This document shows positions 5,454 to 62,572 of a stretch of 64,000 bases of DNA, piece after piece (position 1 is the first letter of the stretch; each line of letters opens with the position of its first letter). Below the pieces are notes generated by a model that worked only from the letters and a program-made list of their open reading frames with translations, ran no database searches and was not told the DNA's origin. The position numbers and the translations under genes are program-made. This stretch comes from an uncultured bacterium (GTDB taxonomy: Bacteria > Zhuqueibacterota > QNDG01 > DTFT01). Where the stretch lies: contig CAVTNR010000027.1 of NCBI GenBank assembly GCA_963736115.1, positions 64,001 through 128,000 on the forward strand, in the 5' to 3' direction.

Positions 5454-5474
5454 AATTTGCCAATAAAGCTATGA

Positions 5475-5503
5475 AATTTAAGGAAAAAATGCTGGGGATG
5501 CAA
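5475..5503 (-). promoter_or_regulatory. Sigma70-like promoter for ffh operon
   Basis: Minus strand TTGCAT-17 nt-TAAATT, 22 nt upstream of the ffh ATG. Confidence 0.55.
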
Positions 5504-5706
5504 GAAGTTTTATATAATACGGATCAATTGTGGCTAATTACCTAATTTATTTAATATCAACTAATTATCAGTAACCGCATAGGTTCTTCGGACATTTTCC
5601 TCCATCAGCACGACGCTCGTTCCTCTAAGTTTCCGGCGGCGGAAATGTGATACTCTCTATTTTCATATTTCGAACCGGACCGCATCATTTTGCGCTGAAA
5701 TGCGCG

Positions 5707-6852
5707 TCAGACTCGAATACGGACACGCAGTCCGCCCGAAACCTCTTCCTCGGAGACCAGAATGATGTATCCTCCCCCGCTCCCTGAGAAAATCGCGCCC
5801 GGATAACGGGCATACGCCTGGAGTTTTTTCTCCTGCTCCTCCGGGACTGCACGGGGTAAAAGCGACTTCCAAGCCTCCAGGTTCAGTGACAATGACCGAC
5901 CCAACTGGACGACATTCCGGTCGCGGATGCCGGACCAGCAACGTTCCGCGGATTCCGCCAGCATCCGCACGCCTTCCTCGGTAACATTGCGATCCTGAAG
6001 AGGATCGTATTGTTGCGGCCGTGATCCGACGGGAATCAGGCGCAAAACGCTTTCCAGCCATCGGGCGGATTCCGGATCCGTGATCGAGTCGATGCGCGCC
6101 GGCCAATATCCGCCGTCGTATTCGAGACGATTGATGCCGGGAAGCAGCAGGCCGAGATGGTCCTGGGATCCGGACACATACCGGGAACCGGGCGGATTCT
6201 CGGCGCCGAACAGCAGTCTGGCGTTGCGCTCCGGATCGCCGTCTGGAATACGGTCGCCCCAGAGATCGAGCGCCACCTTGCGCGAGCTGGTGCCCATACC
6301 CGAGCGTTCGTGAAAAACGACCGTCGGGAGGATCTGAACGACGATGACCGGTCCGGGATGCAGTTTGGAGACCCAGGGCTGGTCCATCCATCCGCCTGCC
6401 AGGCAGATGCGGTACGGCAGGCGGAGTTCCAGTTTGAGGCCGGAACTCGAACGGGCCGGCAGACCCTTCTCGGGCACGCGGTCGAGGACGATGTACTGCA
6501 CGCCGTTCTCGCGGCACAGGCGTTCCTTTTCCGGCGTGTGCCCGTCCGAATTCACCACGAAGCGGTCCGGTTTCAGACGTTTCAGATCCGGCTCGAAGTC
6601 GAGCAGACCCTTGCCGGATCCCAGGATCGCGTCATGAACGAACCGGATCGATCGGACCAGAAACAGACGTTCGTCCTGCGTGAAAACCGGAGCCTTGCCC
6701 TTCAGGTGAAGGATGTTTTCGTCCGTACCCAGGGAGACCGTCAGGCGGCCGTACTCCGATGCTTCCTTGAAAAAAGCGACATGTCCCGCGTGCAGCAGAT
6801 CGAAGCATCCGCTGACCAGAACCGTCTTTTCACTCGCTCCGTGCCTGTTCAT
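5707..6852 (-). CDS. Bifunctional HIGH-type nucleotidyltransferase / GHMP-kinase-like protein
   Basis: Start MNRHGASEKTVLVSGCFDLLHAGH (HxGH motif), ATGA-overlapping the epimerase stop. C-terminal PYRICLAGGWMD, SGMGTSS, SGSQD and FSGSGGG resemble GHMP kinase motifs. Confidence 0.8.
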   Translation of the reverse strand: MNRHGASEKTVLVSGCFDLLHAGHVAFFKEASEYGRLTVSLGTDENILHLKGKAPVFTQDERLFLVRSIRFVHDAILGSGKGLLDFEPDLKRLKPDRFVVNSDGHTPEKERLCRENGVQYIVLDRVPEKGLPARSSSGLKLELRLPYRICLAGGWMDQPWVSKLHPGPVIVVQILPTVVFHERSGMGTSSRKVALDLWGDRIPDGDPERNARLLFGAENPPGSRYVSGSQDHLGLLLPGINRLEYDGGYWPARIDSITDPESARWLESVLRLIPVGSRPQQYDPLQDRNVTEEGVRMLAESAERCWSGIRDRNVVQLGRSLSLNLEAWKSLLPRAVPEEQEKKLQAYARYPGAIFSGSGGGYIILVSEEEVSGGLRVRIRV

Positions 6853-7817
6853 TCCCGTCCTTCCGTCATCTGCCGGAAAATCCATGCGTACGTCTTCTCC
6901 AGCCCCTGCTTCAGGGAAATGGACGGTTCCCAGTTCAAATACCGCCGGATCAGCGTATTGTCGCTGTTCCTTCCGCGGACGCCCTTGGGAGCGTCCAGAT
7001 CGTATTTCCGTTCCAGCCGGATTCCGGCGATGTTCTCCACGAGTTCGACCAGCCCGTTGATGGAGACCAATTCGCTGGAACCCAGGTTGATCGGTTCCTC
7101 GATTTCGCTCCCCATGATGTCCATGATCCCCTTCACACCATCGTCGATGTACATGAAGCTGCGGGTTTGGCGCCCGTCGCCCCAGACAGTGATCTCGCGC
7201 CCGCTTCCGCGCTTGGCTTCGATGACCTTTCGGCAGATGGCGGCCGGCGCTTTTTCCCGCCCGCCGGTCCACGTGCCGAAGGGACCGTAGACGTTGTGGA
7301 ACCGGGCCATGCGGGTGACCAGGCCGAAATCCTCCCTGAAATGCCGGCACATCCGTTCGCTGAAGAGTTTTTCCCATCCATAGCCGTCCTCGGCCATCGC
7401 GGGATAGGCGTCGGCTTCACGAAGGCCGGGGTTGTCCGGATCTTTCTGCTTTTCGGCGTTGTACACGCAGGCGGATGAAGCGAAAAAATAACGCGCCACG
7501 CCAAGGTCCCTGGCCGCCATGAGCAAATGGGTGTTGATCAGGACGCTGAGCATGCAGGCCGCCTTATGCGTCTCGATGAACCCCATTCCGCCCATGTCCG
7601 CAGCCAGGTTGTAGACCTCGTCGCAGCCGTTCATCGCGGTGACGCAATTCTCGCGGATCCGCAGGTCCAGAACCCGGTTTTCAGCGTCAGCTGAACGCTG
7701 ATACCATTGGTTTAGCGGCTTGATGTCCACGGCCCGCACGCGGTGATCCTTTTTAAGAGCATTGACCAGATGACCTCCGATGAAGCCTCCGGCCCCAGCC
7801 ACCAGAATGTTTTTCAT
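6849..7817 (-). CDS. NAD-dependent epimerase, GDP-mannose 3,5-epimerase-like
   Basis: GAGGFIG, NLAADMGGMGFI, ASSACVY, YGWEK, GGREKAPAAICRK and GVRGRNSDN all match the GME subfamily. Confidence 0.88.
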   Translation of the reverse strand: MKNILVAGAGGFIGGHLVNALKKDHRVRAVDIKPLNQWYQRSADAENRVLDLRIRENCVTAMNGCDEVYNLAADMGGMGFIETHKAACMLSVLINTHLLMAARDLGVARYFFASSACVYNAEKQKDPDNPGLREADAYPAMAEDGYGWEKLFSERMCRHFREDFGLVTRMARFHNVYGPFGTWTGGREKAPAAICRKVIEAKRGSGREITVWGDGRQTRSFMYIDDGVKGIMDIMGSEIEEPINLGSSELVSINGLVELVENIAGIRLERKYDLDAPKGVRGRNSDNTLIRRYLNWEPSISLKQGLEKTYAWIFRQMTEGRE

Positions 7818-7888
7818 GGATACGCTTCCTCTGCTTTATGGAAAGATCAATTATTGCCGATGGAGCGGCCACGGGAGACCGCGTCGGA

Positions 7889-9412
7889 TCAAGGCAAATC
7901 AAGCCTGCTTCCGTAATCCAGACGCGATTTGGCCGTGAACGCGGGAAATGCAGGAACCGCATCAATATAGGGCAGGTCACGGTTCAGCGCGACCAGGTCG
8001 ATGCGGGTCAAACGGATGCTTTCGAGCGCGCCGATGTTGATTCCGATTCTACCGCTGTGGGCCTTGAACAGACTGTCTGTATAGACGCCGAGGAGTCGGT
8101 CCGGATCCCGATCCGCGCCGGCTGCTGAATCGGCGGCCGCTCCCCTGGATTTCAGGATACGGTGACGATGATAAGCGGCCAGCAACGCGTCGCTCCACAT
8201 CATCGTCTCCCACTGAACGGCGGGAAGCCTGTCCATCCCGCGGTCATAGGCCTTCCGATTGACGATCTCATCTCTCAGCAGATCCGCTACAGCCAGCTTG
8301 AACTGCTCGGGGAATTCGCCTGAACGCATCCTTCTTTTCCTGAAGACCAGGGGGTGGGAGGCGGTTAATTTGAGGAAATCGGACACGGTCCAGGTTCTAC
8401 CGTCAAACGTGAAAAAAGGCCGTCCTTCCATCCGGTTCGAGCGGATTTCCGATAGAATCGAGTCCGCTGTCCGGCGCGAAAACGACTCGGCGGGCATGGA
8501 TCCGTCCAGGGAAAACCGATCACCCGCCTTCCGGTCGGGCGTATACAGAGTCCTCATCAGTTCCGTCATTTTCTCGAACGGTTCCCGCTGAAACTCGAGT
8601 TTCCGGCCCTTCATCAGCCCGAAGACATAGTCATCCCAGACAGCCTGTTTTTTCTCTTCCTCCATTTTCCGCCGTACGGACTCCCGGCGTTCCCGGACGT
8701 CCTGATCGGAGACCGCGGGCCGGTCGGACCAGTCGAGAATCCGCATCATGAGATACCCGTCCTCCCCGATGTCGATGGGGCCGATCACCTGATCCTTCCG
8801 GAGCGGCCCTGAAAAAAGAGCGTTGTGGACGGCTGGAAGCTCCGAAGATTTCCAGGAAACGATCCTTTGGGGGGGCGGTCCCAATCCACCGGTTTTCTCA
8901 TGCAGGTCGTTGAAGGATTCCGACCGGGCCGCAATCGCCCCCCAATCCTTCAGCGCTCCGATCTTCTCCCGGCTGACGGTAAAAAAGCTCAAGCGGTATT
9001 CCCGGCCTGCGACGCTGGTGCGGCTTCGGAATTCGGAAACTTCCGGCGTCGTTTTTCCTTTCGTAACCTCATCCAGGAATACCCGCCTCATGAACTGCTC
9101 TTTTCTGCCCCGGATCATGCTCTGAAAAGCCGGACTTTCCGAGAGCGCGTTCCGTTCCCCGGCCTCCAGCGCGTACAGTTTCTCGGCGACGAGTGAATTC
9201 AGGACAATGCTCCGCGCCCGGGGGGAATCCCCCCTGCAATAGGGGGGCCGGACGGTGTATTCGGCCCTGCGTATGAATTCATCCTGAGTGATAATCCGGT
9301 CTCCGATGACCGCGAGAATCCCCTCATTTTTATTCTTTTTTCCGCACTGGAAAGAGATCAGGATGACCAGTGTCAGAAATACGGCGTTTCTGCGAATGGA
9401 CCTCATCACCAC
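7889..9412 (-). CDS. Lipoprotein, SurA/PrsA peptidyl-prolyl-isomerase-like chaperone
   Basis: Lipobox ISFQC; LAVIGDRIITQDEF and LNSLVAEKLYALEA are typical of the SurA N-terminal fold, repeated in the second half (LAVADLLRDEIVNRKAYDRG). Confidence 0.6.
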   Translation of the reverse strand: MVMRSIRRNAVFLTLVILISFQCGKKNKNEGILAVIGDRIITQDEFIRRAEYTVRPPYCRGDSPRARSIVLNSLVAEKLYALEAGERNALSESPAFQSMIRGRKEQFMRRVFLDEVTKGKTTPEVSEFRSRTSVAGREYRLSFFTVSREKIGALKDWGAIAARSESFNDLHEKTGGLGPPPQRIVSWKSSELPAVHNALFSGPLRKDQVIGPIDIGEDGYLMMRILDWSDRPAVSDQDVRERRESVRRKMEEEKKQAVWDDYVFGLMKGRKLEFQREPFEKMTELMRTLYTPDRKAGDRFSLDGSMPAESFSRRTADSILSEIRSNRMEGRPFFTFDGRTWTVSDFLKLTASHPLVFRKRRMRSGEFPEQFKLAVADLLRDEIVNRKAYDRGMDRLPAVQWETMMWSDALLAAYHRHRILKSRGAAADSAAGADRDPDRLLGVYTDSLFKAHSGRIGINIGALESIRLTRIDLVALNRDLPYIDAVPAFPAFTAKSRLDYGSRLDLP

Positions 9413-9495
9413 CTCAATCGGATGGAACAGACCGCTTTTTTCAGAAGCAATCGCCGGTCAGGTGATCTCACGAGCCGGTTACACTTCCGGACGTT

Positions 9496-11979
9496 CTAAA
9501 TATTTGTAAATTCATATGTCCGGCCGGGCGCTGTTTCAACGTCGTACAGGTACCCTTCCGGCACGCGGCGGAGTTCGATCCGGGCGGCTTTGGAAATAAT
9601 AGGAGGCTTTCCCTCCGGAATCCAGTAAAAGGGATTTGGATTATTCCCTTTGGCGGCTTTCAGCCGCGTACGCCCTTCCCCTTTCAACGGGAATCGCGAA
9701 CGAACCCGGCAGTTTCCGCCGAGCGTGGATCGGATGTTCAAACGGGTGATCATCCCCTCTTTCCACTCCATCGACGCGATTTCAAAACCGCCGCGCGCCC
9801 TGAGTCCGGTCACATTTCCTTCCGGCCACGCGCCGGGCAGGGCCGGAAGCACGTGAATGGCGCCGTCGTCGCTCTGCAGCAGCATCTCCGCGATGCCCGA
9901 TGTGAATCCGAAATTCCCGTCGATCTGGAACGGAGGATGGGCGTCGAAAAGGTTGGGATAGGTTCCGCCTGATTCTGCGAAACCTACTCCGGGCCTCCGG
10001 TCCAGGGGTTTGATCTGTTCTTTGACGAGCCGGTACGCGTGATCGCCGTCCAGGAAGTGGGCCCACATGTTGATTTTCCAGTTCATCGACCAGCCCGTGG
10101 AGGGATCCCCGCGATGCAGCAGCGACGTTCGGCCGGCGTCGAACAGTTCCGGCGTCCGGTACGGCGAAATCTGATTCCCCGGATAAACGCCGTACAGATG
10201 GGAGACATGGCGATGATGGTCGTCGGGATTGTCCCAGTCCTCGAGCCATTCCTGCAGCTGGCCGTGCCGGCCGATCTGCATGGGCGGCAGTCTATGCAGA
10301 GTCGATTCGAGTTCCCTGACAAATGCCGGATCGGTTTTCAGCAGCCGGGCGGAGCGGGCCGTCGCAGTCAGGAGGTCGAAAACAAGCTGGTTGTCGAGTG
10401 TGGCTCCGGCCGTGATCGAATATTGCGGGTGGATGGAGGGGGCGTTCTCCGGGGAAACAGAAGGGCAGACGACCAGCCATTTTTTTGTAGGTTCCTCAAC
10501 GAGAAATCCCAGATAGAACTCAGCCGCTCCCTTCAGGATCGGATAAACCGAGCGCAGATACTCCATGTCCCCGTTGAACAGGTATTTCTGCCAGAGGTGC
10601 TGGCACAGCCAGGCGCCGCCGCTCGGCCACAGCCCCCAGAACGCACCGTCCACCGGGCCGTTGATACGCCACAGATCGGTGTTGTGGTGGAGAACCCATC
10701 CGTCCGCGCCGTACATGCTCTTCGCCGTCTGCCGTCCTGTTTCCGAAAGCTCGCGGACCATCTGAACCAGGGGTTCTGCCATTTCGGGGAGCCCCGTGGT
10801 TTCGGCAGGCCAGTAATTCATCTCCGTGTTGATATTGACCGTGTATTTGCTGTCCCAGGGCGGGAACAGCTGGTCGTTCCAGAGACCCTGCAGCGTGGCG
10901 GGTTGTCCCCCGGGCTGAGAGGAACTGATCAGAAGATAACGGCCGAACTGGAAAACCAAGGCCGCCAGGTGCGGATCGTTCCCGCGGCCGAATTGTTCGA
11001 TGCGGACGTCGGTGGGATTCCGCGCGGAATCCGTCACGCCGAGATTCAATCGGACCCGTCCGTAGAACTTCCGGTATGCCTCGATATGATCGTTGAGAGC
11101 GGCCGCGTAATCCTTTTCCGCGGATCGGATGAGCGGCTCTTCGGCTCTCCGGTGCGGATCGCCGCTGATATCATCGTACCGGATGAAGCTGGAGGCAATG
11201 GAGACGATGATCAGAGCGGCGTCCGCATGACGGACAAAAACCGCCCCTTCGACCGCATCTTTCTCTCCATTTTCAGATAGGACCCGCGCCGCGGCGGCGA
11301 ACCGAACTTTCCCATGGACGGACTCGCAGTCTCCTGTTGTTCCGGACAGAACGATCCGATCTGGATCTTCTGTCGAAACATCAAAATCCGCAGGCCTGTC
11401 CATGGAGACCGCGAAATTCAATTGACCGGGCCGGTCCGCGGTGATTCGGATAAAAATCACCTGATCGGCGAATGAGGCGAAGACCTCCCGATGGAAGGTG
11501 ACCTCCCCTACCCGGTAACGCGTGGTCGCGACCGCCCGTTCCAGATCGAGTTCACGCCTGTAATCCGACGCCCGTTCATGCCCGGGAAAGGAGAGAACCA
11601 GGTCTCCGACGGTCTGATACGGCATGCCGTGAGCGATTTTCGAGACCATTTTCTCGTTGGCCAGCGCCTGCGCGGCGCCGACCTCTCCGCTGAAAATCAG
11701 GCGGCGGACTTCGGGAAGCGCCTGGAGCGCGTCCGGATTGTCGTTCCGGTAGGGTCCCCCCGCCCAGACCGTGCCTTCGTTCAGCTGGATGCGTTCGCGC
11801 CAGGGATTTCCGAAGACCATCGCGCCCAGCCGTCCGTTGCCCACGGGCAGGGCCTCGGTCCAGACACGGGCCGGTTTATCGTACCACAGCATGAACGGTG
11901 CCGTTGTCCGGCTCGGGTCCGCCGAAGCCGCAGCCGACAGTAAAAGAACGATCCCGGTCGCGAAAACCCGCCTTTTCAT
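9496..11979 (-). CDS. Glycoside hydrolase family 95 (alpha-L-fucosidase / alpha-L-galactosidase), secreted
   Basis: Signal peptide; [53 protein letters not shown]. Confidence 0.95.
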
Positions 11980-12043
11980 GATTCACTCCCGTTCGGGGTA
12001 TTCGGATTCGAATACGAAAATACCGCCGGAAACCGGCGTGTTT

Positions 12044-13102
12044 CTACAAAGAAGCGCCGACCGTGAACATGGAATAATCGCCCAGGAGCCCGGTCGACTT
12101 GAGGGCGTAATCGATTTTCAGCGTACGGTTGTTCATGAGGGCCCAGTGGATCCCTCCGCCGTACGTCCAGCCGTATTCGCTGCGGTCCATGAACAGACCC
12201 CGGTATCCGCTCCTCAGACAGAGTGCGACCCTTCCCGGAATACGGATCCGGTATTCGCCCCCGAGGTTCACGGATTCGCTGTTGTTGTTGGCGTGCAGTG
12301 CGTCGACCGCCACGCACAGCTGATGATGAGCCGTTTTGAACGGCAGCATCGAGGCACCGACCCGGAAAATCAGCGGCAACTCCCAGGACTGGAGACGGAA
12401 CTGGCCTTCCACGTCCTTGTAGTTCCCCTCGTCTTCCGAGATATCGACCGGCTGGAGCAGATCCATGCCGTCAAAACGCATTTTGGTGCCGTAATTGGAG
12501 ATGCTCATGCCGATGGCGAGTCCGTTTTCGCGGGTTTCGTCCGGCGAAAAGAAGCCGGTGTTGATGAGGAGCCCCAGATCCAGGGCCGCCGCGTTGGCGC
12601 GCATGTGCCAGATGCCGGAAGTCACGTACTTGAACGTGGCGCCGAACCCGAACCATTGGGCCAGTTTCCGGGCATAGGAGACGCTCGCGGCGATGTCCAT
12701 GGCGGAATAAGTCTCTCCCGTGCCTTCCTGCATTTCCATGGTCGTCACCGGCGTGGTTCCATAACTCATGCCCGTGAATGACAGGGCGAACGTGCCGAAA
12801 GAAGGCAGAACGACGGCCGCGGCGGCATGGGTAAACCGGATGTCCACGATCCACGGCTGATAGGCGAACTGGATCTCGTTCCGATTCATGAAGGAGAGGC
12901 CGGCCGGGTTCCAGTATGCCGAGGAAAGGTCACGGGCGACGCTGACATAGGCCTCTCCCATGGCGGAACCCGCGCTTTCAGCGCCGATTTCCAGGAAATT
13001 GGCGGTCGTCGTTCCCACACGGTAGGGCTTGGACTGTCCCGTCAAGGGAAGGACGCCCAGCAGCACCGTCGCGATGATCGCCGCAGTTTGAAGTGTCTTC
13101 AT
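12044..13102 (-). CDS. PorV/PorQ-family outer-membrane barrel
   Basis: VGTTTANFLEIGAESAGSAMGEAYVSVARDLSSAYWNPAGL is the typical PorV-family N-terminus; beta-strand pattern follows. Confidence 0.85.
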   Translation of the reverse strand: MKTLQTAAIIATVLLGVLPLTGQSKPYRVGTTTANFLEIGAESAGSAMGEAYVSVARDLSSAYWNPAGLSFMNRNEIQFAYQPWIVDIRFTHAAAAVVLPSFGTFALSFTGMSYGTTPVTTMEMQEGTGETYSAMDIAASVSYARKLAQWFGFGATFKYVTSGIWHMRANAAALDLGLLINTGFFSPDETRENGLAIGMSISNYGTKMRFDGMDLLQPVDISEDEGNYKDVEGQFRLQSWELPLIFRVGASMLPFKTAHHQLCVAVDALHANNNSESVNLGGEYRIRIPGRVALCLRSGYRGLFMDRSEYGWTYGGGIHWALMNNRTLKIDYALKSTGLLGDYSMFTVGASL

Positions 13103-13148
13103 ATCCGTTCTCCTGTATTGTCGTGACCAGAGGGTTGCGACGGATCCG

Positions 13149-16100
13149 TCACTTGATGACCGCGAACTTTCCGACTTTGTCCCGGCCGGTGGCGTTGGAG
13201 TGAACGTGGTAAATGTACATCCCGGCGGCTATTTCCAGTCCCTCGCGGGACACCAGGTTCCAGTGCACCGTGCCGTCGTCCGGCCCGTTGTCCACGTCGA
13301 TCTTGTCGACCAGCACGCCCGAGGGAGTATAGATTCGGATGATGCAGTCGGCCGGGACGTGCGTGAACATGATCTGCCGCCTCTGGTTCAGATATTTGTT
13401 CGCGACGGCCGTTTCCATGAGGTTCGTGGAGATGTAGGGATTCGGCACGACCTTGATCGAATCCATGGCGGAGGCCACCCGGGACGGATCCAGCGCAATC
13501 TCCGGCCGAACGGAGAAGACGAACGAATCGGTTTCCGAGAGGGGGGTGTTCACGCCGACGCGGTACCGGTCGCCGGGCGCGGTTGGATTCGCGGTGGTCG
13601 CGGCGTCACTGAAATCAATCGAAAAGATCGTACCGCCCCACCAGTAATTATCCTTGTCCTTGGCCGCGTATCCCGCCAGGATCCGGTCCGTATCCCAGTC
13701 GAACACGCCGTTTTCATTCGTGTCGTACAGGACGAGGTCCACTGTCTCGGCGTTGCCGAGGCTATCCGGTCCCACCGTGGTGTTGACGACACGAAACGGG
13801 TATCGCAGGCCGATCCCCCGCCTCTTATTGGACACCAGAGAGCCGTCAACATCATATATCCCGCTCGTGCGGTTGGTGATCGACTGATATTCCATATCCG
13901 GGTCGAAAATAATTTCGTACTGGAACGGAAAGAAGAGCAGCGCGGGACCCGCCTGGACGCGGATCGGCGCCTCTCCCTGCATCCATCCGGTCTTCATGGG
14001 GTCGCGGTCGATGAACACCGAATCGGCCGGAACCGATATCCGGCAGTGAAGCCCCTCGAACACGTCCGTGGTAATGGCGGATCCGGGCTGCAGGCGCCAG
14101 ACTTTTAGATCCGGATCGAATTGTATATTGGATTCGGTGAACCCATTCGCGGAATCCTCCTGATACACGGTGACGGGCGATTCCGTAATGTCGTCGATCC
14201 GCAAGCCGGAGGTCACGAGTTTTCCGTCCCGCGGCGCACGCCGCGTTTTGGAAAGGGCGTAATTGGCTATTTTGGAAGTGTGGAACAGGACCCGGTATGT
14301 ATGACCGGGCTGGATCTCCTTCGAATCGACGATGGCCGGCGCGATCAATCCATCCAGGAGCCTTTCGCTCGAATTCGCCTGGTCGATCGTGATTTCGGGA
14401 GGCACGTAACCGGCCGCCGCCTGCCCGGGCTTCACCACCTGCACGTTCTGTCCGATCCGGACCACGTTCTCGGCCTCGTCCAGCTCGATGTCCACGCCGC
14501 TCTCGGCAGGCGCGATGTCCAGGTCCTCGACGCCGTAATCATAGGCCACCAGCGCGTAATAATAGGTTCGGCCGTTCTGCACGTCGGTGTCGATGAAGTA
14601 ATGACGGATGCCCGTGTCGTCCCCGAGATACACAAGGTGCCCGTCCATCGCCCCGCCGAGATTGCTGTAGCCCTTGATGGTGTCGACCTTGTCGCACTGA
14701 AACAGCGGCGCGCGGTATTTCTTCGTTCCTTTTCCGTCGGTGATGACCCTCGCGTCCGACATGAACTTGTCGGTCGATTTGTACAGTTTGTAGCCCTCGA
14801 AATCGTTGACGTTCTGCAGGAGCGGTTCGCGCGTCTTGGTGTCGGATATGTCATCCCAGGTGAGGATGACCTTGCCGTCCCCGGCCGCGGCCTTGAGCGT
14901 GGGCATGAGCGGCGGCTGCGCGAACTGATAATCGTGGTCATAGATGATCTGGGCCACTTCCTTGAGGCGGAACAGATTCTCCGCCCGGTGCGCCTTGGCG
15001 TTCAGGGTGGCCATGTTTTCATAAGCCGCCATGAAAGCCATGGACACCCGCTCCGTCCGGCCCTTGTAGAGCGGGAACGGCGAGGAGGCAAAAATCATGT
15101 AGATGGATCCGTAGGAGCCGGCGACCAGATAATCGCAGAGCGTATCCGAATTCATCACGTTCCAGACATTCATATCCTCATTCAAGGTCAGGCGGAGGGT
15201 GTTCTGCCACTGGGCCCAGTCAAACAGCAGGAAGCTGGTCAGTCCGACCATGTCGGACTCGCTGACATCGAGGGGCCCGAAATTGGGTTCACCTTTGACG
15301 TCGATGAAGTCCGGTTTGTGATTGCATTCGCTCCCGTCCGCGTCCGGGCCATAGTAGTTCAGATCGCCAGGACCGACACCGTCCACACCGACGTCGTCGC
15401 CACAGAAAGCGCCGAGTTCCAGCGTCCAATCTCCGCTTTCGGTGCGATCGGCATAGGAGCCGTCCTGATCAGGGTCGATGCCGTCCTGCCAGTCCTGGTC
15501 CTCGTCGCCCTCCCAGTGGGGCTGGGGTTCCCGGTGGTTGAATGCGCGGAACTTCTCCACGTCGATCAACCGTCCGCCCGGTCCCATCTCCGCGGCGACC
15601 CATTGTCCTGCGGGGTTGTCCCGGCTTTCATCGATGATTCCGTCATCGTCGTTGTCCTCGCCGTCGAATGCCTTGCCGGGGCTCTCCAGATAGGCGTACC
15701 CCATGACGCCGGGTATCCTGCCGCCTTCCCCCTGCCCCAGTCTTTCCCACACGTAGGCAAGATCGAGGACTTTGTCCCGGAAGCCGACCTCGTTTTCGCC
15801 GCTGGCGTCTCCGCCGATGCTGTTGTCCACATAATACCCGAATCCGCTTTTCGGCAAATCGTATTCCGAAATATTCGAAACGTTGTATTCCCAGAAAACG
15901 ATGTCCTGTGCCTCATTGTTGGCCCATTGATATCCCCTGACTTCGTATCGCAGACCGAGGCCTCCCCACGGCAGGCCTTTTTGGATGGTGACATACGGGT
16001 CGATGTCGCCGATGATATGGCCCGGCCGCGGAATGTACCTCGGCCCGAGGGTGATCAGCTTTTCTTCCGGATCATTCCGCTGGATGATGTGTTCCATGTC

Positions 16101-16724
16101 CTGCGCGTCATTCGCGACGAAGTAAGATTCGAGCGCCGCCTTCATGACGCCGCGGCCGAAACGGCCGTTCCATTCGCCCGGCCAGACTTTGGTGAATCCG
16201 GTCAGGGGCCACCCTTCCGTCGGCCAGGATTCCGGTTTGTTGCTCATGGCCGCGTAATCCTGGGACGGATTGGCGTACCCGGGAACCGGATAGATCCCCC
16301 ACTCCACGGTTCCGTCGTAATTCAAGTCCGGTTTATCGTCAGGGTAGGAATGCGACTCGACGATGTATATCGTATCGATGGAACCGGCTTCGAGCAGACG
16401 GGAGTCATCCAGCCGGTCGATCGGTATGGAATCCTGGTATACGGTCACTTCGCTTCCCGCCAGGATGGACGCGACGTCGATCATCCGCTGTCCCGTGTAG
16501 TCATTCGGCCAGCGGCTCGTGCCTGTGGCGGGAAAGTCGGCTATTTGCGTATTATTCTCGAAATACAGCATCAGCCGGTTCATGTTCATGTATCCGGAAC
16601 GGATGGCCGAGATGTCGCCCGCCGGATCCTCGGGGCCCGTGTATGGCCTGCCCTGGGCCCAGGCGCCGGATGCGCACAAAACCGCCCCCAGGCATGCCGC
16701 GAGAATTCCAGTCTGTATTTTCAT
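13149..16724 (-). CDS. Large secreted protein with acidic DxDxDG loops, FN3-like segment and T9SS-type C-terminal domain
   Basis: Signal peptide; DGEDNDDDGIIDE-type motifs; AAAGDGKVILTWD...YYYALVAYD (FN3-like); C-terminus IKVVPNPY...IRIYT..G.LV...WNL...AAGMYIYHV...GKFAVIK. Confidence 0.75.
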   Translation of the reverse strand: MKIQTGILAACLGAVLCASGAWAQGRPYTGPEDPAGDISAIRSGYMNMNRLMLYFENNTQIADFPATGTSRWPNDYTGQRMIDVASILAGSEVTVYQDSIPIDRLDDSRLLEAGSIDTIYIVESHSYPDDKPDLNYDGTVEWGIYPVPGYANPSQDYAAMSNKPESWPTEGWPLTGFTKVWPGEWNGRFGRGVMKAALESYFVANDAQDMEHIIQRNDPEEKLITLGPRYIPRPGHIIGDIDPYVTIQKGLPWGGLGLRYEVRGYQWANNEAQDIVFWEYNVSNISEYDLPKSGFGYYVDNSIGGDASGENEVGFRDKVLDLAYVWERLGQGEGGRIPGVMGYAYLESPGKAFDGEDNDDDGIIDESRDNPAGQWVAAEMGPGGRLIDVEKFRAFNHREPQPHWEGDEDQDWQDGIDPDQDGSYADRTESGDWTLELGAFCGDDVGVDGVGPGDLNYYGPDADGSECNHKPDFIDVKGEPNFGPLDVSESDMVGLTSFLLFDWAQWQNTLRLTLNEDMNVWNVMNSDTLCDYLVAGSYGSIYMIFASSPFPLYKGRTERVSMAFMAAYENMATLNAKAHRAENLFRLKEVAQIIYDHDYQFAQPPLMPTLKAAAGDGKVILTWDDISDTKTREPLLQNVNDFEGYKLYKSTDKFMSDARVITDGKGTKKYRAPLFQCDKVDTIKGYSNLGGAMDGHLVYLGDDTGIRHYFIDTDVQNGRTYYYALVAYDYGVEDLDIAPAESGVDIELDEAENVVRIGQNVQVVKPGQAAAGYVPPEITIDQANSSERLLDGLIAPAIVDSKEIQPGHTYRVLFHTSKIANYALSKTRRAPRDGKLVTSGLRIDDITESPVTVYQEDSANGFTESNIQFDPDLKVWRLQPGSAITTDVFEGLHCRISVPADSVFIDRDPMKTGWMQGEAPIRVQAGPALLFFPFQYEIIFDPDMEYQSITNRTSGIYDVDGSLVSNKRRGIGLRYPFRVVNTTVGPDSLGNAETVDLVLYDTNENGVFDWDTDRILAGYAAKDKDNYWWGGTIFSIDFSDAATTANPTAPGDRYRVGVNTPLSETDSFVFSVRPEIALDPSRVASAMDSIKVVPNPYISTNLMETAVANKYLNQRRQIMFTHVPADCIIRIYTPSGVLVDKIDVDNGPDDGTVHWNLVSREGLEIAAGMYIYHVHSNATGRDKVGKFAVIK

Positions 16725-16786
16725 GCCGATACTCTCCTGAATTGGTGTTCGTTCATCCGCAAGAGGAATGACCCGAGACTTCCGAA

Positions 16787-19540
16787 TTAGAAGCCGTATC
16801 CCACAGTCAGCTTGAACGACCGGGGATACGAATAGGCCGTCGGATTATTGATCCGGTCATCATAATCGTTGAAATCGCTGCGATGATTCAGCAGGTCCCC
16901 TTCCGTCACAATCGTCGATCCGGGATCTCCCGTGTCGCTGTACACCCACGCGGCATTCAGCCGGTCGAACAGATTGTACGCGTTGAGTGTCAGCCTCAGC
17001 GTATGCCGTCCGAAAAGAGGCACGGTGTATCCCGCCGAAAGATCGAAAGACGTGTTCACCGGTTTCTTCGAATTGTTCTGATACAGATTGATCCGGTACA
17101 ACGGGCTGTATCCGGGAGGCGCGTATGAATACGGCGTGCCCGAGTTGAGGTATCCGGTCAGCGCCACGTCGAAATTCCGCATGGAATAGGCGACCGTGGC
17201 GTTCGCCGTGTACAGCTGATCCCAGGACATGGGGATCAGACGCGAGATCGGATCCATGCTGTTCCCCGCCCTAGTGAAAGTTTCACGCGGATTATCCGCT
17301 ACGCCGCGGGTGAAGGCATAGGTGAAGTTGACAATGGAGGACAGCCCGCCCCCGGTATAATCCCACGTCAGTTCGATACCGCGCGCATTGCCGTAATCCT
17401 TGTTGGTGAAAAGACCGTACCGGATCTGGTTGTACGTGGTCATGACCTTGGTGCTGAGCAGGTTGTAGATGTCCTTGTAGTACACGGACACTTCCAGCCC
17501 CATGCCGTCCATGAGCTGCTGCCAGATTCCGAGTTCGTACTGGACCGTTTTCTCCGCCTTGAGCTGGGAATTGCCCATGGTCGTCTGGTAATTGAACGGG
17601 GAAACACGGAAAATATTGTCCTCGAACAGGGCGAACATCTGCGGCATCTGGAAGAAATGCCCGTAACTGAAACGGAGCACCGCCTGGTCACTCAGCTTGT
17701 AGGAAAGCCCCAGGCGCGGGCTGAACTGCGTCTGCGGGGTGTTCCGGGGGTAGGTGGACATCATGGAATCAGGGAGCGCGAGCTGGTTCCCTGGGTTCCT
17801 GAAATTGGAAGGGTAGTGATAATTGGCATTGAAATAATCGTACCGGAGACCCAGCTTGATGACCATTTCCTCGAATTCCATTTTATCCTGGATGTATCCG
17901 GACATTTCGTAAGGTTTGACTTGGTAAATGTTGACCGTATTGTCGGTCACGGGGATGATTTCAGGAATGTAATTCGGGAATGTGATTTTGCCGGTTTCCC
18001 AATCCACCGCCATATCGTTCGCCTCGGACAGTCCGTCGTACAGGTTCCGCACGTCAATCCGGTCCCGGTCCACCACATGCGAGGTGTATTGTAAACCGGT
18101 CTTGAAACCATGGTTCCGGTTGACCTGCCAGTACAAGTCGAATTTAGCGTCCCCCCTCTGGAAAGCGTCCATCCGCTTGCCGGGGTCCACCATGCCGCCT
18201 GTGTAGAACCCGGTTTCCTGGCTGCCCCGGTAATTCGGACTGATGTAGCGCGGATCCAGCGGATTCTCGTACAGGTACGATTCCTCCCTGCGGTCGCTGT
18301 AGGACAGTTTCAGATTGTAATACAACGAACGGGACAGCATGTGGTTGACGTCGAACGACGCCAGATGGACCTCGCTGAAATCCCACGGCAGTCCATCGGG
18401 ATTGTATTTATATTGATAATCTCCCAACCCGTTATTAAACCGTTTGCTCTTGCTCCCATTGAACGAATACAGCAGGTTTGCCTTTAAATTGGAGAACGGT
18501 TTCAGTGTCAGCTTGGCGAGCAGATTGTCGTAGAAATCCTGCTGCATCGCCACGTATTCATTGTCCCCGGTGTGCTCGATGTGCCAGGACGCGGGGTCGT
18601 TCGCCGGATACACGCTGTAATCCCACGGATTGAAACGCCGGATGCCGTTGATCGGGCCGCGGTTGTCCTGCCTGCGGTAATTGACGAAAAACGTCAGCCG
18701 GTCCCTCAGGATGGGGCCTTCGATCTGAGCCTTGTAATCGCGGCTCAGGTTGCGGGAAAGGGCGCCCGAGTTGCCGAGTCCGATAAAAATGTCGTCGTGC
18801 GACGTAAAATAGTTGCTGAATCCGCTCGACACCTGCATGCGCCAGGCATTGCCGCCGTCCTTGGTGACGGCATTGACCATGCCGCTCATCGCGCGGCCGT
18901 ATTCGGCGTCGAAGGTGCCCTTGATCACCTCCAGGTCCTGCACCGTTTCCTTCTCGACATACACGCTCTGGCGCGAATACTCGCTGAAGGAATTGACAAC
19001 CTGAAGGCCGTCGATCATGAACGCGGATTCGCTGGTCCTTCCGCCCCGGAAATGCCCCGCGACGATGCCCGCCTGCATATTCACCACCTGATCGACGTTC
19101 TCCACGGGCAACCGGGCCATCTGGTCGGCCGATACGTTCCGGATCGAGCTGGTCTGGTCCTTCTTGAAGGAAACGGCGCTCGCCGTCACGACAACGGGTT
19201 CACCCTGCAGGACCGTCTTCTCCATTTCGAACCGAAGTGTGGTCGTGGAGTTGACGCTGATGCGGACATTCTGCATCCGGACCGGCCGGTAACCGATCAT
19301 GTTCGCCTGAACCGTGTATGCGCCGGGGGAAATATTGATGATGTAGTAATTCCCCTGAAGGTCGGCGACCGTTCCGATCGCCGTTCCCACCAGCATGACG
19401 TTCGCGCCGACCAGGGGCTCCCGGGTGGCTCTGTCGATGACGATTCCCCCGACTTTACCCGTCGTTTGACCGATCGCCGATCCGGCAAACAGAATCACCG
19501 TCATCAGCGCAAGGACATGACACCCGTTCTTTCTGCGCAT
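16787..19540 (-). CDS. TonB-dependent receptor with carboxypeptidase-regulatory-like N-domain
   Basis: GKVGGIVIDRATREPLVGANV, plug HFRGGR...GTFDAEYGRAMSG, barrel SPRLG and LKAEKTVQYELG, terminal YGF. Confidence 0.92.
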   Translation of the reverse strand: MRRKNGCHVLALMTVILFAGSAIGQTTGKVGGIVIDRATREPLVGANVMLVGTAIGTVADLQGNYYIINISPGAYTVQANMIGYRPVRMQNVRISVNSTTTLRFEMEKTVLQGEPVVVTASAVSFKKDQTSSIRNVSADQMARLPVENVDQVVNMQAGIVAGHFRGGRTSESAFMIDGLQVVNSFSEYSRQSVYVEKETVQDLEVIKGTFDAEYGRAMSGMVNAVTKDGGNAWRMQVSSGFSNYFTSHDDIFIGLGNSGALSRNLSRDYKAQIEGPILRDRLTFFVNYRRQDNRGPINGIRRFNPWDYSVYPANDPASWHIEHTGDNEYVAMQQDFYDNLLAKLTLKPFSNLKANLLYSFNGSKSKRFNNGLGDYQYKYNPDGLPWDFSEVHLASFDVNHMLSRSLYYNLKLSYSDRREESYLYENPLDPRYISPNYRGSQETGFYTGGMVDPGKRMDAFQRGDAKFDLYWQVNRNHGFKTGLQYTSHVVDRDRIDVRNLYDGLSEANDMAVDWETGKITFPNYIPEIIPVTDNTVNIYQVKPYEMSGYIQDKMEFEEMVIKLGLRYDYFNANYHYPSNFRNPGNQLALPDSMMSTYPRNTPQTQFSPRLGLSYKLSDQAVLRFSYGHFFQMPQMFALFEDNIFRVSPFNYQTTMGNSQLKAEKTVQYELGIWQQLMDGMGLEVSVYYKDIYNLLSTKVMTTYNQIRYGLFTNKDYGNARGIELTWDYTGGGLSSIVNFTYAFTRGVADNPRETFTRAGNSMDPISRLIPMSWDQLYTANATVAYSMRNFDVALTGYLNSGTPYSYAPPGYSPLYRINLYQNNSKKPVNTSFDLSAGYTVPLFGRHTLRLTLNAYNLFDRLNAAWVYSDTGDPGSTIVTEGDLLNHRSDFNDYDDRINNPTAYSYPRSFKLTVGYGF

Positions 19541-19604
19541 GCTTTCTCCTTCCTCCGTATTCCGCTGTGAGTGCGCCAGGCTGGATGCCTGCAGAAAATC
19601 AAAT

Positions 19605-19620
19605 ACTTTATCGAGTAAGT
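19605..19620. promoter_or_regulatory. LacI-type operator upstream of the TonB receptor
   Basis: ACTTTATCGAGTAAGT, two mismatches from the palindrome ACTTACTCGAGTAAGT, central CG; near-duplicate of 20672-20687 including the flank. Confidence 0.7.
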
Positions 19621-19634
19621 TAATCGTGCAATAT

Positions 19635-20669
19635 TTACTCTTTCAGGATTCCGGACTGTTCCGGCACTTTAATCGATTTTCCGATTTCTATATCAGAATC
19701 GATCCATACCATTCTATTGAATCCCTTCTCTCCGCGGATGCATTTGAGCATCATCTCCATCGCCTCCAATCCGAGCTCATAGGGATCCACATTGATAATG
19801 GTCATTGAAGGGGACGGTATTTGAGCGAATTCGTGATGGCCGAAGGCGACAATTCCAATGTCATCCGGTATTTTCAATCCCCTTTCACGAATGGCGTCAT
19901 ATGCGCCAAGGGCAATTTGATCGTTGGCGGCAAAAATGACTTCCGGTTTGTCCCGGCTCGTCCAGATCTTCCCGAATCCGGCGATTCCGTCTTTTCTTTC
20001 GAAACCGCCTTCCGCAATCCATTCTTTCCGGACCGGCAATCCATGATTCTTCAGGGAATCCAGATACCCGTCCAGACGGTCGCGGCCGATTCGAACAGGC
20101 GAAGATCCGGCCAAATGACCGATTTTCCGGTATCCGCACCCAATCACGAAATCAATGAGTTTTTTCGCCGCGCCCCGGTCGTCGATTCCGACGAATCCCG
20201 AACCCTGTTCCTCCAGAATCCGATCGAAAAAAATCAACGGTACATCCGAAATCTTCACTTTATGATAGATTGCGGCATCCGGTGTTTCCTTCGAAACCGC
20301 TATCAGCAGTCCGTCGACTCGCATTGAAAGCAGATTGAGGATGTTTTTTTTCTCGATTTCACTTTTCTCACGGGAGACGGCCAGGATCACATGATATCCG
20401 GAACGGACGGCCGCGTCCATGATGCCGTCGACCGCGTAGGAAAAAAACGAGTTTGAGATGTCCGGTACGACGACGCCGATGGTCATTGATTTGCGGGAAT
20501 GAAGTCCCCTGGCGTGATAATGCGGAATGTAATTCAGTTTTTCAGCGAGTTCACGGACGCGCTGTTTCATATCGTCTGAAATATCCGAATCACCCTTGAG
20601 TGCCTTGGAAACCGTGGCTCGGCTGACTTTCAATTTCCGGGCGATTTCGGACTGATTGATGATGGGCAT
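19635..20669 (-). CDS. LacI-family transcriptional regulator
   Basis: MPIINQSEIARKLKVSRATVSKAL HTH, LNYIP hinge, periplasmic-binding-protein-like domain. ATG 20669 preferred because the promoter lies within the tracked upstream extension. Confidence 0.95.
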   Translation of the reverse strand: MPIINQSEIARKLKVSRATVSKALKGDSDISDDMKQRVRELAEKLNYIPHYHARGLHSRKSMTIGVVVPDISNSFFSYAVDGIMDAAVRSGYHVILAVSREKSEIEKKNILNLLSMRVDGLLIAVSKETPDAAIYHKVKISDVPLIFFDRILEEQGSGFVGIDDRGAAKKLIDFVIGCGYRKIGHLAGSSPVRIGRDRLDGYLDSLKNHGLPVRKEWIAEGGFERKDGIAGFGKIWTSRDKPEVIFAANDQIALGAYDAIRERGLKIPDDIGIVAFGHHEFAQIPSPSMTIINVDPYELGLEAMEMMLKCIRGEKGFNRMVWIDSDIEIGKSIKVPEQSGILKE

Positions 20670-20671
20670 GG

Positions 20672-20727
20672 ACTTACTCGTGTAAGTTAATTGATAATAT
20701 TTTACTCTTTTTCTCAACCAATGTCAA
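20672..20727 (-). promoter_or_regulatory. lacI promoter with autoregulatory operator
   Basis: TTGACA(20727-20722)-17 nt-TAAAAT, then the palindrome ACTTACTCGTGTAAGT (20672-20687) immediately before the ATG. Confidence 0.75.
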
Positions 20728-20770
20728 GCGGTTTCTCGATGCAGTGTCGGAACCGGTTTTGTGTCACGCT

Positions 20771-21169
20771 TCATCGGACAGGTCCCGTGGAATCTTCCAT
20801 ATTGTAAATTCGCTCCATCAATCTCCATTTCTCCCCCGCCGTAGACTCCGCGGATGCGGCCTGGAACCGCGACATACTCGCTTCCCATTCGGCTTGCCGA
20901 GGTTTTCCCGCCAGTTCGGCCATGGCGCGGTCATGATCGAAATCCGGAACCGTGTCCATGATCATGAACAACCGGTATCCGTCCCTGTAGATTTGCATGT
21001 CGAGGATGCCGACTTCCCTCATGCCCCTCGTGATTTCCGGCCAACAGGCCCCGGGCGCGTGGGCTTCTTTATACGCCTGCATGAGAGTCGGATCCGCTTT
21101 CAACTCCAGCGTCTTGCAGTACCGTTTGATTTCCCTCGTATTTTTCAAATCTGTTTTAACCGTGGTCAT
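20771..21169 (-). CDS. L-rhamnose/L-fucose mutarotase family protein
   Basis: KRYCKTLELKADP..AYKEAH..WPEITRGMREVGILDMQIY...RQAEWE...W.LMERIY. Confidence 0.88.
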   Translation of the reverse strand: MTTVKTDLKNTREIKRYCKTLELKADPTLMQAYKEAHAPGACWPEITRGMREVGILDMQIYRDGYRLFMIMDTVPDFDHDRAMAELAGKPRQAEWEASMSRFQAASAESTAGEKWRLMERIYNMEDSTGPVR

Positions 21170-21239
21170 CGGTTGTTTCCTCCCGCATTGATACGAATAG
21201 CAGTGATAGCCGGCTGGCACGGACCCGCGCCTGTATCCC

Positions 21240-22550: not shown

Positions 22551-22562
22551 GGCCGTCTTCCT

Positions 22563-62486: not shown

Positions 62487-62572
62487 CCGCCTGAAGACGG
62501 ACGCGATGCGGGAGCGGGTCTGAACTCCCGCCCGTGACGCCGGACCGTCCGAAGGAACAAGGAGCGAATCGG

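Follow-up and report, generated by a model that had tools for sequence, protein, structure and literature searches.

Organization of the locus

We analysed a stretch of 64,000 nt (the window; positions 64,001 to 128,000 of contig CAVTNR010000027.1, assembly GCA_963736115.1) from an uncultured bacterium of the Zhuqueibacterota. Positions 5,707 to 21,169 hold a locus for a mutarotase, a LacI-family regulator, an outer-membrane uptake module, a GH95 glycosidase, a homologue of GME (GDP-mannose 3,5-epimerase), and a protein that joins a HxGH nucleotidyltransferase domain to a GHMP kinase domain (hereinafter the fusion). A preliminary description had read this locus as a salvage pathway that takes L-galactose through L-galactose-1-phosphate and GDP-L-galactose to GDP-D-mannose. 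All the elements that it named lie on the minus strand, at the positions given in Table 1. The gene order is also as described, with the mutarotase gene adjoining the LacI gene and GH95 upstream of the epimerase and fusion genes.

The genes are separated by gaps of 46-94 nt, save for the last pair. Specifically, the stop codon of the epimerase gene and the start codon of the fusion gene overlap in ATGA at 6849-6852 (gaa TGA / ATG aac), which bears out the translational coupling suggested previously. The whole fusion gene spans 5707-6852 and encodes 381 residues, and ffh lies 253 nt beyond it. The longest open reading frame (ORF) in this frame opens at 7377, but the Pfam domain begins only at residue 188 of that ORF, while the start at 6852 gives a protein of the same length as its relatives. 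The mutarotase ORF is longer than tabulated (20771-21268), the end coordinate 21169 corresponding to internal Met34, and the likely true start of LacI is the ATG at 20669. Signal-peptide-like N-termini are found in the receptor, the 1191-residue protein, the barrel, GH95, and the 507-residue protein, and are absent from the epimerase and the fusion.

Table 1. Genes and sequence features of the locus, listed in the direction of transcription
Feature	Position	Strand	Basis and remarks
RhaM-family mutarotase	20771-21169	-	PF05336, E 1.5e-26; 93.1 bits, cut-off 23.4; 132 residues from internal Met
Sigma-70-like promoter match	20699..20727	-	TTGACA, 17 nt, TAAAAT; 11/12; ahead of LacI
Operator-like palindrome TTAACTTACACGAGTAAGT	20672..20690	-	Just 5' of likely LacI start codon
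LacI-family regulator	19635-20669	-	Pfam LacI and Peripla_BP_1; ORF open up to 20717
Second operator-like site	19605..19623	-	1 mismatch to first; 5' of TonB-dependent receptor gene
TonB-dependent outer-membrane receptor	16787-19540	-	Pfam; CarboxypepD_reg and Plug domains; signal peptide in N-terminus
1191-residue secreted protein	13149-16724	-	Pfam family: none
PorV/PorQ-family outer-membrane barrel	12044-13102	-	NF033709, 197.6 bits, cut-off 90; PF19572, E 4e-10
G+C-rich hairpin and T-run	12024..12038	-	Between PorV-like gene and GH95; 6 G-C pairs, loop 3, tail GTATTTTCGT
GH95 exo-glycosidase with signal peptide	9496-11979	-	PF22124, E 1.4e-177; PF14498 and PF21307 also present
507-residue lipoprotein-like protein	7889-9412	-	N-terminal ...ISFQC lipobox-like end; faint SurA-N-like hint
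GME homologue (short-chain dehydrogenase/reductase, SDR, epimerase)	6849-7817	-	phmmer against 2c59
Fusion, N-terminal HxGH nucleotidyltransferase domain (about residues 1-140)	6433..6852	-	PF01467, E 9.3e-10
Fusion, C-terminal fucokinase-like GHMP kinase domain (residues 143-381 and stop codon)	5707..6426	-	Structural matches

The epimerase belongs to the GME family

The epimerase matches Arabidopsis GME (2c59) with a phmmer E of 4.9e-93 (315 bits), residues 4-318 of the query aligning with residues 32-343, while the next SDR families, UDP-xylose synthase and others, match only at E 1e-27. A G8xxG11xxG14 NAD motif is present. Cys117, Tyr146, Lys150, and Lys189 align with all four plant catalytic residues, which we take to be Cys145, Tyr174, Lys178, and Lys217, in agreement with a chain index offset of 2 in the alignment. 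With near full-length similarity and four catalytic residues kept, the protein previously called GME-like is a true member of the GME family. GME interconverts GDP-D-mannose and GDP-L-galactose, and the epimerase of the locus is predicted from its sequence to do the same. The equilibrium ratio GDP-mannose:GDP-L-galactose:GDP-L-gulose is given in one passage of the literature as 80:15:5, favouring GDP-mannose (PMC6678494).

The fusion combines a HxGH nucleotidyltransferase with a fucokinase-like kinase

Residues 6-137 of the fusion form a PF01467 domain (39.3 bits, cut-off 21) that also matches TIGR00125 (42.1 bits, cut-off 27.7) and carries the HxGH motif as H21-A-G-H24. Residues 5-125 structurally match TagD (2b7l, VIA Z 16.5), HldC, and related cytidylyltransferases, with Z of 14.8-16.5. 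Proteins of the cytidylyltransferase fold have a second phosphate-binding motif of the RTxGISTT or ISST type near the C-terminus of the domain. R134-S-S-S137 lies at the matching place, by position only and in a part of low model confidence; R134 is invariant in both clades of the family described below, as RSSS in one and RSTT in the other.

Compared with the usual GHMP kinases, the kinase half is short by about 100 residues. Neither Pfam model for GHMP kinases (PF00288, PF08544) matches the fusion of the window even at E 5, NCBIfam gives no family for this half, and phmmer matches of the fusion to solved structures are confined to the N-terminal half. PF08544 is detected only in the homologue P0009 and, at E 0.0057, in the paralogue of the fusion. 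In an AlphaFold model built on 32 relatives (mean predicted local distance difference test score 88), residues 143-381 superimpose on the heptokinase WcbL (4usk; Z 21.9, root-mean-square deviation (RMSD) 2.9, 233 residues aligned), on the fucokinase part of Bacteroides fragilis FKP (9iip; Z 20.3, RMSD 2.7, 222 residues aligned, 23% identity), and on galactokinases (Z 17-19; 1s4e at Z 19.2), with RMSD of 2.7-3.0 across 221-233 residues for 4usk, 9iip, and 1s4e. The modelled half is thus clearly a GHMP kinase by fold. The fusion named in the preliminary description is borne out on one side by PF01467 and the HxGH motif and on the other by the modelled kinase fold.

A partial view of the FKP structure paper gives Arg592, Trp599, Asp601, Thr602, Gly759, Gln761, and Asp762 as ligands of L-fucose, with the Trp stacking on C4-C6 of the sugar, and reports that FKP phosphorylates L-galactose and D-arabinose as well (PMC11982464). 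A profile of the fusion family aligns ungapped, as a weak match (E 0.031-0.28), to residues 588-618 of FKP and places R148, W155, D157, and Q158 on R592, W599, D601, and T602; Q158 replaces Thr, and the others are identical. The structural alignment of the kinase half to FKP has the same offset. G228-S-Q230-D231 fits the Gly759/Gln761/Asp762 group by motif only. R148, W155, D157, Q158, G228, Q230, and D231 are all at least 97% conserved among 149 relatives. These alignments support the prediction that the kinase half keeps FKP-type residues for a sugar of L-fuco or L-galacto configuration.

A different substrate would be a heptose phosphate, as for WcbL/HddA with HldC, or D-arabinose or L-gulose, converted into an ADP- or CDP-sugar, with GME a mere neighbour of related chemistry. 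The top structural match by Z is WcbL rather than FKP, the best NCBIfam match of the N-terminal half is a heptose-1-phosphate adenylyltransferase domain (51.6 bits, below the cut-off of 181.5), and FKP itself takes D-arabinose. However, FKP is the only GHMP kinase that the family profile reaches in the N-terminal sugar-binding motif, Trp included, and the genomic context features families of exo-fucosidases/galactosidases, FucP, and enzymes of GDP-sugars, heptose genes being absent from it. We regard such a substrate as highly improbable.

The GME-fusion pair is conserved in many bacteria

More than 3640 relatives of the fusion were found at E 0.001 among 8000 candidates scored. Those with names carry only "cytidyltransferase-like protein", "adenylyltransferase/cytidyltransferase family protein", or "FAD synthase". 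In a library clustered at 50% identity there are 215 representatives at E 1e-30, among them kinase-only forms of about 240 residues, proteins of about 220-310 residues that match the transferase half in two stretches and possibly carry doubled transferase domains, and longer forms.

In species genomes, 208 relatives were found. The best 80 loci, which belong to Bacteroidales, Prolixibacteraceae, Rikenellaceae, Ignavibacteriota, Calditrichaceae, and unclassified metagenome-assembled genomes (MAGs), were kept, and their neighbours were counted with tblastn (E 1e-10, coverage of 50% or more). In 73 of the 75 loci with at least 1100 nt upstream, the fusion is directly preceded by GME on the same strand, a pairing far beyond chance; in one of the two misses (L063) a transposase gene occupies the place of GME, and the other is L055, described below. 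A LacI homologue is found within 10 kb of the fusion in 46 of the 80 loci. GH29 is nearby in 36 and ManC in 32, in 29 of these 13-264 nt downstream on the same strand. A permease of the MFS family is found in 31, the mutarotase in at least 23, GH95 in 14, and a sodium:solute symporter in 3. These counts bear on the co-occurrence of fusion, GME, and GH95, which the preliminary description had listed among its checks. All three MFS permeases tested pass the cut-off of the FucP equivalog model, and the matches of the ManC proteins are to models of mannose-1-phosphate guanylyltransferase. Among ten loci annotated with Pfam, the cassette is also found with xylan-type enzymes around it (GH43, GH3, GH10, and esterases).

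A sister clade of the fusion lacks GME

The genome of the window has a second copy of the fusion, 46% identical and with unchanged sugar-binding residues, on contig C30 (L083 8245-12583). Its neighbours are a GT2 glycosyltransferase, an aminotransferase, a PAP2 phosphatase (the gene precedes the copy, at L083 6250-6855), gmd, fcl, and a regulator of chain length. Two ORF pieces are read for each of gmd and fcl, owing to either frameshifts or errors of assembly; should the breaks be real, the cell would rely on salvage for GDP-fucose.

Among 79 relatives of the C30 copy in species genomes, GME is adjacent in one, L148, which by score and by branching belongs to the GME clade. MFS permeases of the FucP type are found in 20 of the 79, GH29 in 15, gmd in 4, and fcl in 3. 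The two clades differ at a set of positions in the kinase half (C150/D, M156/L, V171/T, Q173/S, W328/Q, L332/F, T335/M, A353/K, S356/G, and G357/A). In an IQ-TREE phylogeny under a site-mixture model, 23 sister-clade rows separate from 25 GME-linked rows, including the window, with a Shimodaira-Hasegawa approximate likelihood ratio test value of 100 on both sides (48 of 149 rows, hand-picked for diversity). At least three assemblies hold both clades, namely the genome of the window, the L003/L089 MAG, and the L076/L156 MAG. GME linkage is therefore specific to one clade of the fusion, and the sister clade without GME fits fucose salvage.

The sister clade bears on an anabolic alternative, in which free L-galactose and/or L-fucose would be turned into GDP-sugars for the cell's own surface glycans, the role of FKP in Bacteroides, with GME (and ManC) working forward to top up GDP-L-galactose. 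Consistent with this, the sister clade stands beside gmd and fcl in the genome of the window and in 3-4 of the 79 loci, and in a cultured carrier, Tangfeifania diversioriginum DSM 27063, the mutarotase of the cassette is followed by genes for a PAP2 phosphatase and a glycosyltransferase of the PMT_2 type (L057 11553-13863). Moreover, Amuc_1591 of Akkermansia muciniphila, which has the same architecture, is proposed in the relevant passages to feed L-fucose into lipopolysaccharide (LPS) (PMC13313206), and part of a 2022 review ties bacterial GMEs so far to LPS or antibiotic synthesis (PMC8787198). Against this alternative, L057 is the only one of ten Pfam-annotated GME-clade (clade A) loci with a glycosyltransferase nearby, and what recurs instead is a sugar-responsive LacI repressor along with a permease, a mutarotase, and exo-glycosidases. 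There would be little sense in inducing de novo synthesis (ManC and GME) at the same time as salvage of one and the same product, whereas catabolism needs all four activities in series, and the GME equilibrium favours GDP-mannose. On balance, an anabolic role of the cassette seems unlikely.

GH95 and the uptake module

The best solved relative of the GH95 protein is BACOVA_03438 (4UFC; E 3.1e-268), with 895 bits compared with 763 for the fucosidase XacAfc95. To our knowledge, BACOVA_03438, associated with corn xylan, is the only characterised alpha-L-galactosidase in GH95. The three-domain architecture of the family (PF14498, PF22124, PF21307) is complete, and a T-V-N-I-N segment aligns with T370/N372/N374 of 4UFC, including the catalytic Asn pair. 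The protein is thus a candidate alpha-L-galactosidase. GH95 enzymes are inverting and release beta-L-galactose (PMC4491172), and FKP-type kinases use the beta anomer according to the passages on FKP (PMC11982464). The mutarotase has no phmmer match among solved structures at E 0.01.

The 1191-residue protein has no Pfam match even at E 5 and none in NCBIfam, and the Atlas clusters closest to it (score 0.99) are labelled "putative lipoprotein" or hypothetical. The genome encodes three paralogues of partial length, with 29.9-30.9% identity over the C-terminal 60-70% of the query, which stand beside PorV-like genes, and the protein is a recurring partner of the receptor. The 507-residue protein has no Pfam match at 1e-3 and none in NCBIfam (SurA_N_2 matches only at E 0.014); a paralogue, 33% identical, adjoins a second receptor module on contig C19.

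These proteins are parts of a recurring outer-membrane module. It comprises a PorV/FadL-like barrel, at most sites with a TonB-dependent receptor and a protein of about 1200 residues without a family, and sometimes a SurA-like lipoprotein. The module is found at 12044-19540 of the window and at C27:129-139k, C19:68-77k, C10:78-81k, and C3:65-69k of the genome. The barrel recurs at five further genome sites with 38-40% identity, and the protein of about 1200 residues at three of these. In this lineage the module may take the place of SusC/SusD as an uptake system.

L-fucose has its own route

The L-fucose isomerase FucI is encoded away from the cassette in all six genomes checked, namely that of the window and all five other carriers, and L-fucose therefore has its own route. 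In the genome of the window, a canonical 615-residue L-fucose isomerase, followed by a sodium:solute symporter, is encoded at C27:160615-164269 (L082 8615-12269), 33 kb past the end of the window; this symporter shares 43% identity with the one after the cassette in L041. The window itself ends, at 60094-64000 on the plus strand, with genes for a FGGY sugar kinase (60094-61785), a class II aldolase (61599-62486), and a Fucose_iso_C isomerase (from 62534 to the window end), which are predicted to be a cluster for a fucose/rhamnose-type isomerase pathway.

L-fucose could nevertheless be the true substrate of the cassette, the fusion forming GDP-L-fucose and the GME-like enzyme epimerising it, for example to GDP-6-deoxy-D-mannose, for catabolism or glycans. 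The neighbours GH29 and GH95 are classically fucosidases, the permeases pass the FucP model, and the sugar pocket of the fusion equals the fucokinase pocket. However, FucI lies elsewhere, the closest kin of the GME homologue by far are enzymes with GDP-mannose and GDP-L-galactose as substrates, and the adjacency of ManC fits a mannose product. In addition, we know of no onward route for 6-deoxy-mannose phosphate, and the sister clade already fits fucose salvage. L-fucose as the substrate is very unlikely in our judgement.

A proposed GDP-linked route for L-galactose

We propose that the GME/fusion pair turns L-galactose into GDP-mannose, in the order L-galactose, L-galactose-1-phosphate, GDP-L-galactose, GDP-mannose, and mannose-1-phosphate, and we consider this probable. 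Membership of the epimerase in the GME family, the FKP-type pocket, the GH95 relative, and the neighbourhood give in silico support to the route that the preliminary description had laid out.

Specifically, the TonB-dependent receptor module would import an oligosaccharide with terminal alpha-L-galactose, and periplasmic GH95 would split off L-galactose. In the cytoplasm, the RhaM-type mutarotase would supply the beta anomer, which the kinase half of the fusion would convert with ATP into beta-L-galactose-1-phosphate and the HxGH half, with GTP, into GDP-L-galactose. The translationally coupled GME would then run to its favoured side and yield GDP-D-mannose. A ManC-type guanylyltransferase, encoded elsewhere here and in the operon in many relatives, would use pyrophosphate to release mannose-1-phosphate and GTP. 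The net cost of the route would be one ATP per sugar.

From this arrangement we infer which sugar is used (L-galactose, not L-fucose), which nucleotide (GTP), and in which direction the flux runs. The preference for L-galactose is supported by the substrates of GME, the fit of ManC to a mannose product, the GME equilibrium, the location of FucI elsewhere, and the GH95 relative. The assignment of GDP as the nucleotide is deduced solely from the neighbours GME, ManC, and gmd/fcl.

Several observations weigh against this route, beginning with the enzymes. The seven sugar-binding residues are identical in the sister clade, with its anabolic or fucose-type contexts, and therefore do not separate L-galactose from L-fucose. 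The characterised members of the HxGH fold use CTP or ATP, and we know of none that uses GTP. GH29 and GH95 are mostly fucosidase families. Nor does the Thr/His site of GH95 decide specificity, since fucosidases with Thr are described in parts of two papers (PMC8245568, PMC10063614). The Thr that contacts O6 in BACOVA_03438 occurs in these fucosidases as well, and the site was therefore dropped as a test of L-galactosidase specificity.

Other points concern the genomes and the phylogeny. An inner-membrane permease and ManC are absent from the operon of the window. The ManC gene of this genome lies on contig C19, beside the paralogous receptor module, and a FucP-type permease was not found in the genome by tblastn (E 1e-8, 40% coverage). 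A search of this genome (87.5% complete) for a type I phosphomannose isomerase gave only a 24-bit cupin match; the enzyme is present in all five other carriers. One clade-A locus, L055, has the fusion without GME in a different context, which suggests another use of the enzyme. There, positions 4165-16618 encode a symporter, an L-arabinose isomerase (AraA), a Fumble-like kinase, a 499-residue protein of no named family, a xylose-isomerase-like TIM barrel, GH2, and ROK. Finally, FastTree on all 149 rows puts the four-member clade of the window on the sister side; this placement was set aside for the better-modelled IQ-TREE tree of 48 rows.

Taken together with the wider family, the L-galactose route invites a broader reading. 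It would be a complete non-oxidative route of mutarotase, a compact bifunctional L-galactose-1-kinase/L-galactose-1-phosphate guanylyltransferase, reverse GME, and reverse ManC, and it would be common among Bacteroidota, Ignavibacteriota, Calditrichota, and uncultured lineages allied to them. The family would be split into a catabolic, GME-coupled L-galactose clade and an anabolic L-fucose-salvage clade, and with the fusion the HxGH cytidylyltransferase fold would gain its first member that uses GTP. For all of these points to hold jointly, we see the chances as evenly balanced.

Regulation

The operator-like motif occurs at just two places in the window, before LacI and before the receptor gene. 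The search gave three matches, two of them being both strands of the 20672-20690 site, and none of 100 shuffles reached three. The motif has no exact match in 88 related loci. The promoter match ahead of LacI is a match to consensus only, with 10 such sites in the region compared with 7.6 expected.

The placement of these sites also weighs against the proposed route as one regulated unit. Only LacI and the receptor gene have operator-like sites ahead of them, and between the barrel gene and GH95 there is a terminator-like hairpin, possibly a terminator or attenuator. Here LacI control would thus have to extend to GH95, GME, and the fusion by read-through, and co-transcription of the GME/fusion pair with the LacI-controlled genes is plausible only. 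In the proposed reading, the last four genes of the locus would be under LacI control. In other lineages LacI lies directly beside GME. A palindrome scan 5' of GME in Prolixibacteraceae-type loci, which are related to each other, found recurrent CG-centred palindromes, AAG[CG]TTTGCG..AAAC[CG]TT in about 10 loci and ATGTT.CG.AACAT in 4, a hint of operators in these loci.

Relation to known systems

The locus is best supported as Leloir- and FKP-like logic built from unrelated parts, with GME in reverse. Like FKP of Bacteroides fragilis (5yys, 9iip, 9iit), the fusion would join a sugar-1-kinase and a sugar-1-phosphate nucleotidyltransferase for an L-fuco/L-galacto-configured sugar in one polypeptide, and the two proteins share the kinase fold and, for binding the sugar, Arg, Trp, Asp, Gly, Gln, and Asp. 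However, FKP has 949 residues, with a pyrophosphorylase of unrelated fold first, and is anabolic without a GME link, whereas the fusion has 381 residues and a HxGH cytidylyltransferase fold. The FKP-type N-terminal pyrophosphorylase domain and the length of about 950 residues are not found in the fusion, whose other half is PF01467. The fusion would thus work like FKP but is not a member of the FKP family.

Amuc_1591, called a "putative fucose-nucleotidyltransferase" (Lakey et al., Gut Microbes 2026), resembles the fusion by description, with an N-terminal adenylyl/cytidylyltransferase-like domain and a C-terminal domain aligned to the fucokinase 9IIP; genetic evidence links it to L-fucose and D-arabinose, and the work reported consists of suppressor genetics and models (PMC13313206, in the passages that concern it). 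The role proposed for it is in building LPS, and neither GME nor L-galactose appears in those passages (PMC13313206). The verrucomicrobial members of the fusion family found here fall in the sister clade without GME.

The pyrophosphorylase (Isselbacher) form of the Leloir pathway (GalM, GalK, UDP-sugar pyrophosphorylase, GalE) has the same sequence of mutarotase, GHMP-fold anomeric kinase, activation, epimerisation to a common hexose, and recycling of the nucleotide. Here the nucleotide would be GDP instead of UDP and the sugar an L-sugar, the epimerase is a 3,5-epimerase instead of a 4-epimerase, and the transferase has an unrelated fold and is fused to the kinase. No protein of the locus has the GalK, GalT, or GalE family as its best match, and the likeness is one of logic only. 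The plant Smirnoff-Wheeler pathway (GMP, GME, VTC2/5, VTC4) shares the intermediates GDP-mannose, GDP-L-galactose, L-galactose-1-phosphate, and L-galactose, as well as the GME family. The route proposed here would run in the opposite direction, with a kinase and a nucleotidyltransferase replacing a phosphatase and a HIT-family phosphorylase, and would serve carbon use, not ascorbate synthesis. As in HldE and HddA-HldC, a sugar kinase is paired or fused with a HxGH-fold nucleotidyltransferase, WcbL and HldC being among the nearest structures; those systems differ in acting on heptose phosphates to give ADP or GDP products for LPS, in the PfkB kinase of HldE, and in the opposite domain order.

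The oxidative catabolism of L-galactose in Bacteroides vulgatus (BVU_0219-0222) and Luteolibacter sp. LG18 has the same substrate and ecological role. According to the portions of the paper concerned, it begins with L-galactose dehydrogenase and proceeds via L-galactonate, with no enzyme in common, and the available text of this 2025 paper does not contain "GDP" (PMC12632266). Our literature search, with most subscription journals outside it, found no paper on a GDP-linked L-galactose route and only oxidative routes in bacteria. This agrees with the earlier statements that bacterial L-galactose catabolism as described is oxidative and that a description of the present route was not known.

L-galactose is available from rhamnogalacturonan II of pectin, cereal glucuronoarabinoxylan, some xyloglucans, and red-algal galactans. 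If the proposal is true, a Leloir-like pathway for an L-sugar and a catabolic role for bacterial GME would be added to those known, and a conserved gene set now called "cytidyltransferase-like protein" or "FAD synthase" would be explained. The 381-residue fusion, less than half the size of FKP, would be a compact biocatalyst for GDP-L-galactose and perhaps GDP-L-fucose.

Neighbouring genes in the window

Directly upstream of the mutarotase gene and on the same strand, positions 21240-24380 encode an ABC transporter ATPase/permease and a PF14907 "uncharacterised nucleotidyltransferase". The ABC gene adjoins the mutarotase gene in the related locus L003 as well. Farther away, between 30000 and 58000, the G+C content of the window falls from about 0.58-0.62 to 0.46-0.52. 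The genes of this part are mostly envelope genes, including Omp85, a TamB-like protein, several OmpA-family proteins, and an Ig-like/ice-binding-like protein, together with genes for a KaiC-like protein, a member of baeRF family 3, and a LuxR-type response regulator.

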